From NCBI GenBank assembly GCA_018648865.1, contig JABGQH010000011.1:24842-88841 (forward strand): a DNA stretch of 64,000 nt. Direction: 5' to 3'. The stretch is from Candidatus Peregrinibacteria bacterium. GTDB lineage: Bacteria > Patescibacteriota > Gracilibacteria > Peribacterales > Peribacteraceae. This document shows positions 59,791 through 64,000 of this stretch, one piece after another; the first letter of the stretch is position 1, and the number at the start of each line of letters is the position of its first letter. Position numbers and translations under genes: made by a program. A model generated the notes under the pieces. The model made no database searches. It worked only from the letters and a program-made list of their open reading frames with translations, and was not told the origin of the DNA.

Positions 59791-61206
59791 CTATTCACCG
59801 GCTGATATTTCTTTTACAACATCTGTTCCACTAGTTGAATCTTTATTTTCTTTATTCTCGTTAATTCCCTTAACTATGTCGATATCTTTATTAATTTGAT
59901 CATTCTTTAAGGGTTTAGGTACTTCTATTGATTTAACTTCTGTCTTCTCAATCTTCTTTTTATTTATATCTGGAGTTGGATCTTTTTTCTCTTCTTTTAA
60001 TTCAGGAGTTTCTTCCGCAGCCATGCTTATATCTGATCCCTCATCATCTAATTGTTTTTTCATACCCACCTTCATTTTTGCAACGCAGTCCAAAACTGCT
60101 AAAGAGAAATTATCAAATTCCTTTATACGAAAACCTGCAGCTCTAGGGTGACCTCCACCATTAAATAGTTCACCAGCTAGTTTACTTATATCAATCTTCG
60201 CACTAGATCTAACGCTTGCCTTTAGCCCTCCCTCCTCTAATTCTGTAAATAATACATACACATCTGCATCTGGAATTGTAGAAATTAACTCATCTAATAT
60301 TCCATGAGTCTCTTTGCTAGTTGCATTCATTTCTGCCAAATCATCCTTACTTATTGTGGACCATACAATCCCCGCATTTGGATCAATCTGAATTCCATTT
60401 AATGCACGTCCCCATATCTTTAGAGTGCTGAGTGGCTTAGTTTTATAGATATTTTGTATGATTTCTTGCTGCCTTGCACCTTTCTCTAGTAACTCTGCTG
60501 CGATCTCTAATGACCTAGGTGTTGTATTAGGATTCTGGAAACTCCTAGTATCTGTAATTAACCCCGTTAAAAGCAGTGTTGCTACGTCTGGAGTAACTAG
60601 ACGCATCCAATCTGGTACTTGATTAAACCAGTTATATAAAACCTCTGTTGCACTAGCAGATGTAGGATCTATCAACTGGATCTGACCATAATTTGAATTA
60701 CTTATGTGATGATCAATGTTCAAAATAGGAATCTCTGAAAATACATCAATGTTCTCTGTGTATATTGAACCAAGAAGTGAGAGATCTGCCGTATCTACAG
60801 TAATGATCAAATCGAAAGGCTTTTCCCCTTCACCAAGTGAGATATCACTAGGTTTAATAACGCCAGACGCGGGTACAACAATAATATTTACACGATTGTC
60901 CTCTACGGTATATCGGAGCTTATCTACCTCTACACCATCACTTAAATTAACAGTAATAACAAACTGGCTCTTGCCACCAATTTCATGTGTCATTTGTTCA
61001 AAACCTGGCAAAAATTCCAAACATTCAGGCTTGGTATCTGGGCATATTACAGTCACATCTTTACCCAATTCATGTAATACATGATAGCAAGCAAGTGCAC
61101 TACTTAAGCCATCTGGGTCTACATTAGCATGAGGAATAACCAGTATTCGCTGATTCTCTTGAATCGCTTTTGTAGCTGCCGCAATGCTTTGATTAGATAG
61201 TGACAT
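59791..61206 (-). CDS. DHH/DHHA1 phosphoesterase (NrnA-like) with Lys/Glu-rich C-terminal extension
   Basis: DPDGLSS, IDHHISN and GGGHPRAAG motifs. The start was set at Met33 (MSLSNQS...); the track ORF extends to 61302. Confidence 0.8.
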   Translation of the reverse strand: MSLSNQSIAAATKAIQENQRILVIPHANVDPDGLSSALACYHVLHELGKDVTVICPDTKPECLEFLPGFEQMTHEIGGKSQFVITVNLSDGVEVDKLRYTVEDNRVNIIVVPASGVIKPSDISLGEGEKPFDLIITVDTADLSLLGSIYTENIDVFSEIPILNIDHHISNSNYGQIQLIDPTSASATEVLYNWFNQVPDWMRLVTPDVATLLLTGLITDTRSFQNPNTTPRSLEIAAELLEKGARQQEIIQNIYKTKPLSTLKIWGRALNGIQIDPNAGIVWSTISKDDLAEMNATSKETHGILDELISTIPDADVYVLFTELEEGGLKASVRSSAKIDISKLAGELFNGGGHPRAAGFRIKEFDNFSLAVLDCVAKMKVGMKKQLDDEGSDISMAAEETPELKEEKKDPTPDINKKKIEKTEVKSIEVPKPLKNDQINKDIDIVKGINENKENKDSTSGTDVVKEISAGE

Positions 61207-61394
61207 GAATATATTATTATAACATATTTCTCTACTTTTATCAATCCCCTTAGGCCTATCAATAAACAGAGGAAAAATTAAAAGAAGAGCCGATTTTGGC
61301 ACGTATTTTTACTATTGGCAATGAATTTCTAGTAATTTAAACCATTATTACAATCACTTGAACATAAGATTAGAAAGTGACAAACTCTAAACAT

Positions 61395-61568
61395 CTTCAC
61401 AAGTTGTGAGGACGCGAGCTTCGGCTCGAATTACTATAATCTGTGGCTAATCGAAAGGTTACCAAGCCATGCGATCCTCAAGTCGTTACAGCGTCCGTTT
61501 CAATCAGTAAAGCGACTTCCTCCAAAAAGACCCTCATTGTCACGATTGCAATGGGGGTCAACTTTTTA
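61395..61568 (+). ncRNA. candidate structured small RNA (class not identified)
   Basis: UUCG-capped hairpin (gagc-ttcg-gctc), GAAA-capped hairpin (taatc-gaaa-ggtta), long-range GGACGC/GCGTCC pairing, and a terminal 11-bp hairpin plus T-run. No ORF. Confidence 0.3.
61529..61568. terminator. bidirectional-looking terminator hairpin
   Basis: 11-bp stem GACCCTCATTG/CAATGGGGGTC. A T5 run follows directly on the minus strand, and a T5 run follows after a 3-nt spacer on the plus strand. Confidence 0.45.
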
Positions 61569-61704
61569 TAAATTAAAATATTATTTCATATGACAAATTA
61601 CAACCCTACCAGTACTTTTAATATAAGATATTTAACTTTAGGACCCACTAAAACCTTTTAACCTTTCAACTAAAAGGTTAAAAGGTCTAAATCTAATATT
61701 CATT

Positions 61705-61740
61705 AAAAAAAAGGGGGGATGCACATAAGTGCTTCCCTCC
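61705..61740 (-). terminator. strong hairpin followed by T8 on the minus strand
   Basis: Minus-strand read is GGAGGGAAGCAC-TTAT-GTGCATCCCCCC followed by TTTTTTTT. On the plus strand the same helix contains a G-U pair instead of an A-C mismatch. Confidence 0.45.
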
Positions 61741-61964
61741 AGTTGTTTACAAGGAGAAAAAAACACGAGCGTTGAATGACCAATAGAGCTAGAGCACTAG
61801 AGGCGATTGCAACCTAGTCGCCTAATAGACAACTACCTCTTAGCGGTAAGGACTCGTCGCATCGTAGTGGAGTCGATCTTCGACTCATTCAGAAACAAAT
61901 TCGCAAGCATATAAAAGTTCTCCTGAACAATGGTAATGGTTCCGGATGGAACCAATGAACAATT

Positions 61965-62043
61965 GGCTTACACACACGTGCAAACCTATAAATAAAAGGT
62001 TATAACTAACCTTTTTGTTATGCAATTATTTTTTACTTTGTGA
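61965..62043 (+). repeat. 79-bp direct repeat, module E, copy 1
   Basis: Similar to 62281-62359, 316 bp downstream. Contains hairpin AAGGTTA-taac-TAACCTT plus a T-run, then tgcaattattttttactttgtga. Confidence 0.8.
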
Positions 62044-62280
62044 TATTAAAAAGATGGTGAGAAGCGCGTTAGCACTTCCCACCGGGTAGGAGATTTCTCC
62101 TCCCGTCGCACGCTTCTATGTGCTAGTGGAGGTCTGGCCGAACGTGATCGCGGAAATCGATTTTTGATTTCGGTCGTGCGATGTAACAGCGGAGAACGAG
62201 TGGCGATTTTTTTTCTTCGAAACGCTCATAAGACAGTACTCCTTGAATAATGTTTTCTACCACGAAGTGTGGAAGAAATC

Positions 62281-62359
62281 GGCTTACACTTGCGTGTTAG
62301 CAGATAAATATAAGGTTATAACTAACCTTTTTTTAATGCAATTATTTTTTACTTTGTGA
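62281..62359 (+). repeat. 79-bp direct repeat, module E, copy 2
   Basis: See 61965-62043. The hairpin at 62312-62329 is followed by T5. Confidence 0.8.
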
Positions 62360-62360
62360 A

Positions 62361-62486
62361 TTGGAGGGGCATGCGCACCACTGGGGGTGAAGGGGCAAGC
62401 GGGAGGGTTTGGTGCGCAGGCGTTTTGGCTCCACCTTTTTCGCCGGAAAAAGGTGGTGAAGAAAGGAGAAACCAATAATGGTTATA
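62361..62486. repeat. GC-rich structured repeat, module A, copy 2
   Basis: 125 of 126 nt identical to 2874-2999. Confidence 0.9.
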
Positions 62487-62500
62487 CTTTTTTATGATTA

Positions 62501-62522
62501 CCCCCTCTCCCTAAGGGAGAGG
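62501..62522. repeat. C-rich hairpin repeat, module C, copy 3
   Basis: ccccctctccctaagggagagg, with hairpin CTCTCCC-taa-GGGAGAG. Confidence 0.7.
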
Positions 62523-62528
62523 AGAGAT

Positions 62529-62565
62529 GAAATCTAATCTTCACTTTGTAATACAATGTATTACA
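62529..62565. repeat. repeat module D, copy 2, with a perfect TGTAATACA-a-TGTATTACA palindrome
   Basis: The palindrome lies at 62547-62565. A further GTATTACA sits 21 bp downstream at 62579. Confidence 0.8.
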
Positions 62566-62625
62566 AATAATTACTTTTGTATTACATTGTCACACAAGCT
62601 AAAAAACAAATTCATTACATGTTCA

Positions 62626-62810
62626 TTTTTTGTCTTAATACAAAAAACGAACCAAAAAAGATCAAGGCAAGCACAGACTCGTTCGTCGCATACTTGCTAG
62701 ACATAAGCTTGACTCACAGAGACAAGTCATCTGTTCGTATATCACTAGAAACTATGCCTTGCTCCTCACTCAAACAAGTGCGCTTGCCATTTTGTCTTTC
62801 ACTTAAAGCT
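62626..62810 (+). repeat. structured intergenic repeat, module B, copy 3
   Basis: Arms 62666-62675 and 62778-62788 are complementary with one mismatch. Confidence 0.8.
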
Positions 62811-62820
62811 TAAAACTATC

Positions 62821-64000
62821 TCAATATCTAGCATTTCCTCCTAACTCTTCTTCTATTCTAAGTAGTTCGTTGTACTTACAAACACGATCTGTTCTGCTTA
62901 ATGATCCTGTTTTGATTTGCCCTGTACGAAGCCCAACAGCTAAATGAGCTATGAATGCATCTTCTGTTTCTCCACTTCTGTGGCTTACAACTGGTTGCCA
63001 TCCATTGTCTTGAGTCATTTTAATAGCATCTACAGTCTCTGTTACTGAACCAATCTGGTTTAGCTTAATTAGAACTGAGTTAACTGCTTTTTTATCCTGT
63101 GCTTGTTTAATCCGTTCTACATTTGTCACGAGTAGATCGTCTCCAACTAATTGAACGTTATCACCCATTTTCGTCATCATTTCTGTAAACCCATCCCAGT
63201 CATCTTCGTTGTGACTATCTTCTATAATTACTAGAGGATATTTATTAACTAATTCTGAATAGTATTCAGTTAACTCAGACGAGCTAAGTTTCTTGCCATC
63301 TACATCATACTTTCCATCTACAAAGAACTCAGAAGCTGCCGCATCTATTGCTATAGAAATTTTTCCTGTGTATCCAGCTTTGTCTATAGCCTTCATTAGG
63401 AAATCAAATGCTTCATCTGCGTTTTTAACCTGTGGAGCAAATCCACCCTCGTCCCCTACTGATGTTGTGTATCCAGCTTCTTTTAGCAGCTTCTTTAGGG
63501 TATGAAAAGTTTCTGCTCCTGCTCGCAAAGCATCTGTGAAATTATCGAAACCAGTAGGAATAATCATACATTCCTGAAAACTAAGTCCACTATCTGCATG
63601 CTTGCCACCATTAATTACATTCATCATTGGTGTAGGTAATAACGCTGCATCCTCTACGCCGAATTGAGAAGCTAATGATTTAAATAACGAGACTCCCTCA
63701 GCTTTTGCTCTAGCACGACAAACTGCCATAGATACTCCGAGTATGGCGTTTGCTCCTAGGACTGTTTTGTTCTTTGTCCCGTCTAAATCTAACATCAATT
63801 TATCGACTGCTCTGTGATCTTTTATTTCTACTCCATCCAATGCAGGTGCGATAACGTCATTAACGTTAGAAACAGCCTTTGTAACCGACTTTCCACAATA
63901 GATACTCTTATCACCATCCCTAAGCTCCAACGCCTCGTGTGAACCCGTAGAAGCACCAGAAGGCACAGCTGAACGACCAAACGATCCGTCATCTAAAGTA
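62821..64000 (-). CDS. eno: enolase (N-terminus lies beyond the window end)
   Basis: SAVPSGASTGSHEALELRDGD, SHRSGETED and the rest of the enolase pattern. The reading frame stays open to position 64000. Confidence 0.95.
   Translation of the reverse strand, partial: TLDDGSFGRSAVPSGASTGSHEALELRDGDKSIYCGKSVTKAVSNVNDVIAPALDGVEIKDHRAVDKLMLDLDGTKNKTVLGANAILGVSMAVCRARAKAEGVSLFKSLASQFGVEDAALLPTPMMNVINGGKHADSGLSFQECMIIPTGFDNFTDALRAGAETFHTLKKLLKEAGYTTSVGDEGGFAPQVKNADEAFDFLMKAIDKAGYTGKISIAIDAAASEFFVDGKYDVDGKKLSSSELTEYYSELVNKYPLVIIEDSHNEDDWDGFTEMMTKMGDNVQLVGDDLLVTNVERIKQAQDKKAVNSVLIKLNQIGSVTETVDAIKMTQDNGWQPVVSHRSGETEDAFIAHLAVGLRTGQIKTGSLSRTDRVCKYNELLRIEEELGGNARY

Follow-up and report, generated by a model that had tools for sequence, protein, structure and literature searches.

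The window analysed here is a stretch of 64,000 nucleotides from a Candidatus Peregrinibacteria genome (contig C13, positions 24842-88841; the genome is 1.13 Mb in 23 contigs, 37% GC and 99.97% complete, and is placed in the Peribacteraceae by the sources of its protein homologs and of the genomes that have the same repeats), and this report concerns the gap at window positions 61207-62820, between the genes for a DHH/DHHA1 NrnA-like protein (nrnA) and enolase (eno), both on the minus strand. We propose that the gap is a composite of non-coding modules assembled at an insertion and recombination hotspot that has lost its transfer RNA (tRNA) gene. From left to right it would contain the nrnA promoter, an orphan unit on the plus strand (seg1), two tandem paralogous units best read on the minus strand (cassettes 2 and 3), a truncated copy of a structured repeat (module A), a cluster of short words (modules C/D) and a probable eno terminator (module B). 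seg1 and the cassettes are terminator-bounded orphan units and most likely small RNAs, whose transcription, promoters and regulatory role we infer from folding and from the comparison of alleles. Taken alone, the composite non-coding anatomy and the hotspot are in our view highly probable. The whole statement, in which seg1 and the cassettes also act as small RNAs, is held more tentatively and falls slightly below an even chance. The modules are laid out as follows.

61207-61245, minus strand: nrnA promoter TTGATA-17-TGnTATAAT (61244 to 61216; 11 of 12 matches, with the TG extension of an extended -10 element), at the left edge of the block
61392-61567, plus strand: seg1, orphan small-RNA-like unit of about 170 nt, recognised by fold, terminator scan and GC content
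61653-61666 and 61673-61686, no strand assigned: perfect 14-bp AT-rich inverted repeat (ACCTTTTAACCTTT / AAAGGTTAAAAGGT), with one 84% identical copy at C21:18824-18873
61705-62043, minus strand: cassette 2, unique in the genome; fold z = -4.1 on the minus and -3.9 on the plus strand
62044-62359, minus strand: cassette 3, paralog of cassette 2; fold z = -6.0 on the minus and -3.6 on the plus strand
62360-62522, plus strand (the G-rich strand): module A, internally shortened from a structured repeat of about 170 nt and identified by covariance model and alignment
62545-62597, no strand assigned: modules C/D, a cluster of the 10-nt words TTGTAATACA / TTGTATTACA / TTGTCACACA with AT-rich hairpins; the motif is also present in L037
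62603-62812, minus strand: module B, putative structured element of the 3' untranslated region (3'-UTR), starting 9 nt after the eno stop codon (62821)

A long gap without genes

Counted from the ATG of nrnA at 61206, the gap measures 1614 nt and is among the four longest of 963 intergenic gaps, of which 77% are shorter than 150 nt and the median is 52 nt (crude open reading frame (ORF) calling). No ORF with homologs was found in it, and gene callers predicted no gene between eno and nrnA in 14 assemblies. An earlier note, made from the letters of the window, had described here an ORF-free block of about 1.5 kb in a genome whose gaps are mostly under 150 bp, and both statements hold up. Its left edge required revision: the note had opened the block at 61303, and nrnA starts not at the GTG at 61302 but at the ATG at 61206, where the alignment with the protein of a relative in the same genus (G001) begins. 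Since a near-consensus promoter abuts this ATG, the nrnA mRNA appears to be leaderless or nearly so. The promoter ends about 10 nt ahead of the ATG. Positions 61208-61257 are the sole part of the block that is kept upstream of nrnA in relatives. The remaining elements of the note, among them the perfect 14-bp inverted repeat at 61653-61686, were all recovered at or near the places it gave. The repeat modules A, C, D and B that it had seen on the right side were likewise borne out, 62360-62820 consisting of interspersed repeats that occur between 7 and more than 20 times in the genome. Further to the left of the block lies the gene for IF-2.

A probable strain-variable hotspot with a lost tRNA

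In all other genera and sister species examined (L038-L044, L060, L061 and L064), a gene for tRNA-Pro(GGG) stands between eno and nrnA. Within the spacers of seven other genera it is found with or without MgtE, a Vut_1 transporter, an AP-endonuclease-like gene or unknown ORFs. A sister species whose NrnA is 77% identical carries HicB-HicA together with the tRNA in the gap, and another sister species has two orphan ORFs with tRNA-Pro and tRNA-Leu. The HicB-HicA toxin-antitoxin pair lies at 4287-4768 of L060, from the closest other species; L061, another strain of that species, has a gene with an SLH domain in its place. In the same-genus relative G001, nrnA and eno are only about 285 bp apart, the tRNA-Pro(GGG) is absent here too, and the spacer has in common with our genome the nrnA promoter region and the TGTATTACATTGT words only. 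The genome itself has tRNA-Pro(UGG) and lacks tRNA-Pro(GGG). ARAGORN finds no tRNA in the block when run on the window, and the block holds no remnant of tRNA-Pro(GGG), the local alignment score of the sister-species tRNA being 18 against a shuffle mean of 17.9. Elsewhere in the genome, ARAGORN predicts the unusual anticodons tRNA-Ile(UAU) and tRNA-Thr(AGU).

Variation is also seen between strains. We surveyed the contigs of every member of the 90% NrnA cluster, among which one allele, L056 (GCA_018653245.1), is the only informative variant; at least 12 other assemblies of the same population are 100% identical over the left 1 kb, and one has a single-base difference. L056 has an identical NrnA, and its DNA shows 100% identity over the span that starts in nrnA, takes in seg1 and the first 300-nt segment and stops at 62042. 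The identity breaks exactly at 62043/62044, the boundary of the two cassettes: beyond it L056 has a diverged second segment, then a copy of repeat E (the repeat shared by both cassettes) that is 90% identical, then unrelated sequence, so that the core of cassette 3 is replaced by a diverged homolog. Taken together, these sequence comparisons point to the eno-nrnA gap as a hotspot of insertion and recombination, variable between strains and with its tRNA lost.

The left part of the block has no detectable relatives outside the species. Searches by blastn, against 40 and then 200 genomes of the family, returned nothing above chance for 61303-62360 in the 199 genomes other than our own, and a sensitive blastn against the syntenic loci of relatives gave no homolog of seg1 or the cassettes. 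Phage and plasmid collections contained no blastn match for either. Metagenome contigs, scanned for exact patterns of repeat E and of the two hairpins of seg1, and viral contigs, also scanned for exact patterns, were without a match in records other than those of the population itself, which leaves seg1 without a homolog in family genomes, metagenome contigs and viral contigs alike.

seg1 and the tandem cassettes

The region at 61395-61568, in which the earlier note had seen UUCG- and GAAA-capped hairpins and an 11-bp terminator hairpin, does contain these three elements, the terminator stem being 12 bp. Its fold is more stable than shuffles on the plus strand (z = -3.7, against -0.7 on the minus strand), and its GC content is 47-49% against a background of 37%. 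The parts of seg1, all on the plus strand, are:

61408-61415/61471-61479: closing stem, which encloses the UUCG and GAAA hairpins
61416-61427: UUCG hairpin
61443-61470: GAAA hairpin
61480-61518: hairpin 3
61516-61523: single-stranded CUUCCUCC
61529-61559: stem of the intrinsic terminator (12 bp), followed by T5 at 61563-61567, called by the terminator scan

Fold and terminator scan suggest that seg1 is an independent small-RNA-like unit with a strong terminator of its own. Its 5' end and promoter are putative, with a weak promoter-like site, TTGAAC-17-CAAACT, as the candidate. seg1 is oriented convergently to the cassettes, and in a crude test the energies of seg1-cassette duplexes were matched by 58, 75 and 175 of 200 shuffles.

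The two GC-rich segments of roughly 300 nt, each ending in the same repeat, were correctly recognised by the earlier note, although repeat E is 83 nt long and not 79 (copies at 61961-62043 and 62277-62359, 86% identical). The cassettes are about 315-340 nt long, with conserved ends and a variable GC-rich core, and no other copies occur in the genome. A three-way alignment on the minus strand shows a diverged core between a shared 5' end of about 95 nt (repeat E) and a shared 3' end of about 45 nt. The three folds agree in layout: two 5' hairpins come first, then a core that a GGAG...CUCC long-range helix closes, then a terminator. On the minus strand, cassette 2 comprises:

within repeat E copy 1 (61961-62043): 5' hairpin GGUUUGCAC-GUGU-GUGUAAGCC with promoter-like hexamers
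after repeat E copy 1: second hairpin GGUUCC/GGAACC
61923 to 61920: GGAG, then 9 nt and an ATG at 61910 opening a 25-codon ORF (stop 61835-61833)
61740 to 61713: terminator hairpin, then U8 at 61712 to 61705

and cassette 3, on the same strand, comprises:

after repeat E copy 2 (62277-62359): CCAC/GUGG hairpin
62242 to 62239: GGAG, then 9 nt and an ATG at 62229 opening a 37-codon ORF (end 62116)
62153-62171: internal hairpin
62083 to 62056: 12-bp terminator hairpin, then AUCUUUUU, called by the minus-strand terminator scan

The terminator hairpin of cassette 2 is the 12-bp G/C-rich hairpin that had been reported at 61713-61740 with a flanking A8; hairpin and A8 (61705-61712) are present, and the hairpin is mismatched on each strand. 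The L056 allele bears on the strand of the cassettes, for which four observations favour the minus strand. The consensus fold of the two cassette 3 alleles (RNAalifold) reaches -40.9 kcal/mol on the minus strand versus -26.4 kcal/mol on the plus strand, and the 12-bp terminator, which the scan calls on the minus strand, stays paired in the two alleles by way of U-A/G.U and G-C/G.U steps that would be mismatches on the plus strand. The hairpin and T-run that the earlier note had seen inside repeat E, which would act as a terminator on the plus strand, proved to be weak (an AT hairpin of 7 bp with 2 G-C pairs), and both G-C pairs are lost in L056 without compensation. The internal hairpin, in turn, shows a compensatory change from GAAAUC/GAUUUC to GAAGUC/GACUUC in L056. 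The strand assignment, left ambiguous in the earlier note, is largely resolved, with seg1 and module A on the plus strand and the two 300-nt units and module B on the minus strand.

One feature near the cassettes was considered and set aside. A 14-nt direct repeat, AAATCTAAT(A/C)TTCA (61689-61702 and 62530-62543), brackets the cassettes and module A; we give it no weight as a candidate target-site duplication, about two such 13/14 matches being expected by chance in this AT-rich stretch.

Known RNA families

The earlier note had judged the block the likeliest place in the window for unannotated structured RNAs, such as tmRNA, RNase P RNA, signal recognition particle (SRP) RNA, 6S RNA or something new. 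The general part of this claim stands, in that the block, rich in real secondary structure and without genes, is assigned to no Rfam family and includes in module A a conserved, covarying element absent from Rfam; the named housekeeping RNAs are not here. The cmscan search that the note had proposed gave only chance hairpin matches, over 60000-64000 at E<=1 and over 61300-62400 at E<=10, and searches at three sensitivities, with the block and with the copies of module A in relatives, assigned no family. Another check that it had proposed, on conservation and covariation, gave a divided answer: module A covaries across relatives, and seg1 and the cassettes have no homolog in the 199 family genomes.

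For tmRNA (RF00023; a tRNA-like domain plus a tag reading frame, with a score above the Rfam gathering cut-off), the sole match in the block scores 7.4 bits (E = 1.6), and the true gene lies at C10:11808-12256 with 78.7 bits; the tag peptide that ARAGORN predicts for it is unusually long, ANNLVSKANSIAEGVMARLSPALVPVMA. RNase P RNA (RF00010; a conserved P4 core and overall fold, with a score above the gathering cut-off) has no match in the block and its true gene at C9:266753-267149 (129.6 bits). SRP RNA (RF00169 and RF01854; conserved across relatives, its domain IV hairpin having a GNAR tetraloop together with symmetric and asymmetric loops that are conserved) has no match in the block at E<=10 nor anywhere in the genome, and an SRP-like GGAAGCAGC site on contig C4 was checked and is not SRP. 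6S RNA (RF00013; a rod of about 180 nt with a central bubble, scoring above the gathering cut-off) likewise has no match in the block or the whole genome. The SRP and 6S models are thus blank genome-wide, though RNase P RNA and tmRNA are recovered normally; the two missing RNAs are either very divergent in this lineage or located in contig gaps.

Small RNAs, small-protein genes or relics

Under the reading we prefer, each cassette would give its own minus-strand transcript, starting inside the conserved 83-nt repeat E, folding into two 5' hairpins and a variable GC-rich core closed by the GGAG/CUCC long-range helix, and ending at the conserved 12-bp hairpin with its U-run. The cassettes would then be paralogous small RNAs with conserved ends and exchangeable cores, and not protein genes; that the cores are exchangeable is suggested by the swap of one cassette as a whole unit between strains. 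A bolder version, which we regard as quite improbable, makes them a new kind of exchangeable non-coding RNA cassette. The 5' module (promoter and two hairpins) and the 3' terminator would be fixed, and a GC-rich core of about 170 nt would be swappable and differ by strain. The result would be a strain-variable RNA locus serving, for example, decoy, targeting or defence functions, in a hotspot where the sister species has toxin-antitoxin genes, with seg1 as a possible partner.

Several observations weigh against the small-RNA reading. The terminator of cassette 2 pairs slightly better on the plus strand (11 of 12 positions, against 10 of 12 on the minus strand), and GGAG followed at exactly 9 nt by an ATG recurs in all three cassettes, which RNA function by itself explains only in part. 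The promoter scan gave nothing convincing for seg1 or for either cassette: the one site that it gives is TTAAAA-18-TATATT in repeat E copy 2, and the number of promoter-like sites in the block equals that in shuffles. Population variation is almost uninformative, so many assemblies being fully identical. The absence of homologs outside one species, and structures that rest on one or two sequences plus thermodynamics, mean that seg1 and the cassettes could be inert relics.

Relics are indeed the main rival. On this account, which we consider unlikely but serious, seg1 and the cassettes would be inert remains of foreign DNA that was inserted, once or repeatedly, where the tRNA-Pro gene used to lie (the ends of a phage, plasmid or integrative element, or palindrome-associated elements of the IS200/IS605 type), GC-rich from their origin. 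Their restriction to one species and absence from the same-genus relative would be expected, as would their GC content of 45-56% in a genome of 37% GC, the mismatches accumulated in the cassette 2 terminator, the hairpins at both cassette ends, as in IS200/IS605-derived elements, and a proven hotspot whose tRNA is lost and whose cargo differs in every lineage. However, phages, plasmids and viral contigs hold no match, no protein remnant is present, and the units are single-copy in the genome and so give no sign of mobility. Selection on structure is suggested by paralogs that agree at the cassette ends and differ in their cores, and by hairpins preserved through compensatory and G.U changes; all three units also end in well-formed terminators on a consistent strand. 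A decayed protein gene was considered and rejected, with no residual Pfam similarity (E<=0.05) in the nine longest stop-to-stop frames of 61381-62296 or in the L056 peptide and no blastn match in phages or plasmids. That one unit, most plausibly seg1, is a very divergent SRP or 6S RNA missed by the Rfam models is very improbable. The blank results for RF00169, RF01854 and RF00013 over a 99.97% complete genome leave room for it, and seg1 is stable, about 170 nt long, terminator-ended and capped by a GNRA hairpin; but nothing matches over 1.1 kb even at E<=10, the three-domain fold of seg1 is neither an SRP-type long hairpin with domain IV loops nor a 6S rod with a central bubble, and any of the 23 contig gaps may hide the SRP RNA. 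Conservation would be expected of an essential RNA, and seg1, having no homolog in 199 family genomes and no counterpart at the same-genus locus, is therefore very probably not one.

Second among the rivals, and rather improbable, is that the cassettes are minus-strand small-protein genes of 25 and 37 amino acids (aa) (40 aa in L056), each with a promoter, a leader that hides the ribosome-binding site, and a terminator, in a type I toxin-antitoxin-like or other small-peptide locus. The GGAG, 9-nt spacing and ATG stand at the homologous place in three diverged cassettes, the GGAG is buried in the long-range helix in all three folds, the L056 ORF has 70% GC at third positions and an RNY-like look (counted on the L056 sequence), a sister species carries a toxin-antitoxin pair at the same site, and the tandem layout resembles the LDR and SIB/QUAD repeats of E. 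coli. The 3' end of 16S ribosomal RNA (C9:175437) reads ...ACACUUCCUU in place of ...CACCUCCUU, with the tail GGATGGAACACTTCCTTACC, which turns the anti-Shine-Dalgarno CCUCC into CUUCC, and AAGGAG could still pair with the tail CUUCCUU via one G.U pair. Yet the host avoids Shine-Dalgarno (SD) motifs, which occur at 3% of 278 well-bounded ATG starts versus 10.6% of random positions. The peptides, MSVSKKKNRHSF... (37 aa), MLANLFLNESK... (25 aa) and MRLSDFKQAALN... (40 aa), are hydrophilic, mutually unrelated and without a transmembrane stretch, whereas a type I toxin would be a small hydrophobic membrane-spanning ORF conserved among copies; each of the two strains reads the homologous hairpin nucleotides in a frame of its own, which makes the hairpin, and not the codons, the conserved feature. 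Pfam at E<=0.05 (the nine longest stop-to-stop frames of 61381-62296 and the L056 peptide) gave no match, an exhaustive HMMER search of the 40-aa peptide against 1.84 billion proteins gave one match that is a repetitive-protein artefact, no gene is called here in any of the 14 assemblies, and in a crude test seg1 showed no special complementarity to the cassettes. With peptides unrelated, frames not kept, homologs lacking and SD motifs avoided, we read the GGAG as chiefly one strand of the core-closing helix and rank a small RNA above a small protein.

Module A: a truncated copy of a lineage-wide structured repeat

Module A is a truncated, plus-oriented copy of an interspersed repeat that resembles repetitive extragenic palindromic (REP) sequences and miniature inverted-repeat transposable elements (MITEs) and is spread through the lineage. 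Of 121 family genomes, 68 contain matches to covariance model R1, as do 52 of 84 genera; the richest genome has at least 22 copies and our own has seven (best E = 7.9e-21). The structure was derived from 20 full-length copies from six genomes of different genera and comprises helices P1, P2, P4 and P5 with a hypervariable hairpin P3. In this alignment 98.8% of cells are paired, nine pairs are changed on both sides and none of 500 shuffles reaches the observed values; with the pairing partners slid, pairing falls to 38-45%. The G-rich strand, plus in the window, is the one with the 14 G.U cells, so this would be the RNA strand if module A acts as RNA. The family is absent from Rfam. A 20-nt core occurs at 54 places among 185,579 species genomes, all of them metagenome-assembled genomes of Peribacteria or Peregrinibacteria save two broader-labelled records, and the neighbours of the copies are housekeeping genes with no transposases.

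Members of the family are recognised by P1, a G-rich 5' strand CGGGGGGTGAAGGGG and a 3' module GGCGTTTTGGCTCCACC-hairpin-GGTGG, and 62360-62456 of the window contains P1, TGGGGGTGAAGGGG and GGCGTTTTGGCTCCACCTTTTTCGCCGGAAAAAGGTGG. The copy in the window lacks the internal helices P2 (GGCCCTG/CAGGGCC) and P4 (CGACCCC/GGGGTCG) and the variable hairpin P3, about 85 nt between AAGC and GGGAGGG being deleted here and in the other copies of the genome. Judged by its sequence, it is a deletion derivative of the repeat family and not a full member. Its parts, on the plus strand, are:

62372-62380/62410-62418: outer helix P1 (TGCGCACCA/TGGTGCGCA), kept with a covarying sequence
62431-62456: terminal hairpin P5
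62503-62522: CCCTCTCCC/GGGAGAGG hairpin behind P5

A G-quadruplex was considered and dismissed, as the four G-tracts are adjacent only via the internal deletion and full-length members lack the motif. In six of the seven copies of the genome, the G-rich strand coincides with the strand of negative GC skew. Another copy, at C13:88974-89105, is found shortly upstream of eno and about 130 nt past the right end of the window, and eno is accordingly bracketed by two direct copies that are 97.7% identical (62356-62487 in the window). In genomes G008 and G019 of other genera (L078-L085, L017, L020, L023 and L026), the 3' module GGCGTTTTGGCTCCACC-hairpin-GGTGG is joined to quite different 5' structured parts. 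This module may be a shared functional end of several repeat families.

Modules B, C and D behind eno

Module B has about 14-15 copies in the genome; 12 of 14 stand directly 3' of a gene and are oriented with it, and their 5' flanks carry TAAGCTT/TAAAGCT runs. In gene sense the copies have a helix (GGCAAGCGCAC... / ...GUGCUUGCC), then UUGAUCUUUUUU and a 13-bp AT hairpin, with an optional 35-nt insert in some. Their consensus fold (alifold) is -44.8 in gene sense versus -22.6 kcal/mol antisense, and the 3' half is found in 13 of 200 family genomes from four genera. Position, orientation and fold suggest a 3'-UTR and terminator element that is the probable terminator of eno, whose transcription the closing helix and U6 would end. 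The parts at this locus, on the minus strand, are:

62804-62816: heptamer-like words TAAAGCT/TAAAAC, immediately after the eno stop codon and on the 5' border of module B
62788 to 62778 with 62674 to 62666: closing helix
62659 to 62654: UUGAUC-U6
62652 to 62621: 13-bp AT hairpin

The words of modules C/D are spread more widely. Their 9-mer occurs 94 times in the genome against 23 expected. Of these occurrences, 69 are intergenic, falling in the share of the genome (roughly 12%) outside crude ORF calls; they form 24 clusters, many of them 4-20 nt behind stop codons.

Relation to known systems and meaning for the lineage

Modules A, B and C/D resemble REP/BIME, MITE-type, Correia/NEMIS, RUP, BOX, ERIC and bcr1 (Bacillus cereus group) elements and IS200/IS605-derived palindrome-associated elements in being non-coding and intergenic and 50-210 nt long, and also in their many copies, compensated structure, restriction to a lineage and frequent position at gene 3' ends. 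Module A differs from these in that some 170 nt form a multi-helix junction (P1-P5), one hairpin of which is hypervariable, and not a simple palindrome or a pair of inverted repeats at the termini; it is linked to neither a transposase nor a RAYT gene, target-site duplications were not seen, and the window copy is internally deleted.

For the cassettes, the closest likenesses come from E. coli. OmrA and OmrB are tandem paralogous small RNAs of about 85 nt with conserved ends and divergent middles. The cassettes are similarly adjacent, on the same strand and equipped with their own terminators, and combine shared 5' and 3' ends with unrelated centres. In contrast to OmrA and OmrB, they are predicted units of about 300 nt, and one unit has been exchanged between strains; no targets of theirs are known, nor an Hfq context in bacteria of the candidate phyla radiation (CPR). 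LDR (Ldr/Rdl) and SIB/QUAD (Ibs/Sib) are type I toxin-antitoxin repeat loci. Like them, the cassettes are tandem intergenic units, some hundreds of bases long, which combine a structured leader and a buried GGAG with a short ORF and a terminator; they also have strain-variable alleles, and a type II toxin-antitoxin pair lies at the same site in the sister species. Unlike in those loci, the cassette peptides are hydrophilic, unrelated and not frame-conserved, no antisense RNA is evident, and the host uses SD motifs little. As for the locus itself, it is like a tRNA-linked integration hotspot, the syntenic site of relatives combining tRNA-Pro(GGG) with lineage-specific cargo, but here the tRNA is gone without trace and there is no integrase, att-type duplication of the tRNA end or mobile-element gene. 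A reading of repeat E as an integron attC site, defined by R''/L''-L'/R' cores (GTTRRRY) next to an intI integrase, was rejected: the core is not present in both copies (GTTATGC versus TTAATGC), and no integrase was found at the site, where gene callers predicted no gene and no frame of the left 1 kb matches Pfam.

This long 'empty' gap of a CPR genome is thus seen to hold no hidden housekeeping RNAs and instead to consist of strain-variable non-coding modules at a former tRNA site, a result that guards annotators against over-reading GC-rich hairpins. For CPR biology, side points are the undetectable SRP and 6S RNAs, the altered anti-Shine-Dalgarno with SD avoidance, and the loss of tRNA-Pro(GGG). 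The pair of cassettes with conserved ends and swapped cores stands out as one odd object, made up of small RNAs, small-peptide genes or debris. Module A appears as a truncated member of a repeat that is present in over half of Peribacteraceae genera and absent from public RNA libraries. Collectively, a strand and a likely role can be assigned to three repeat families that form much of the intergenic DNA of this genome.

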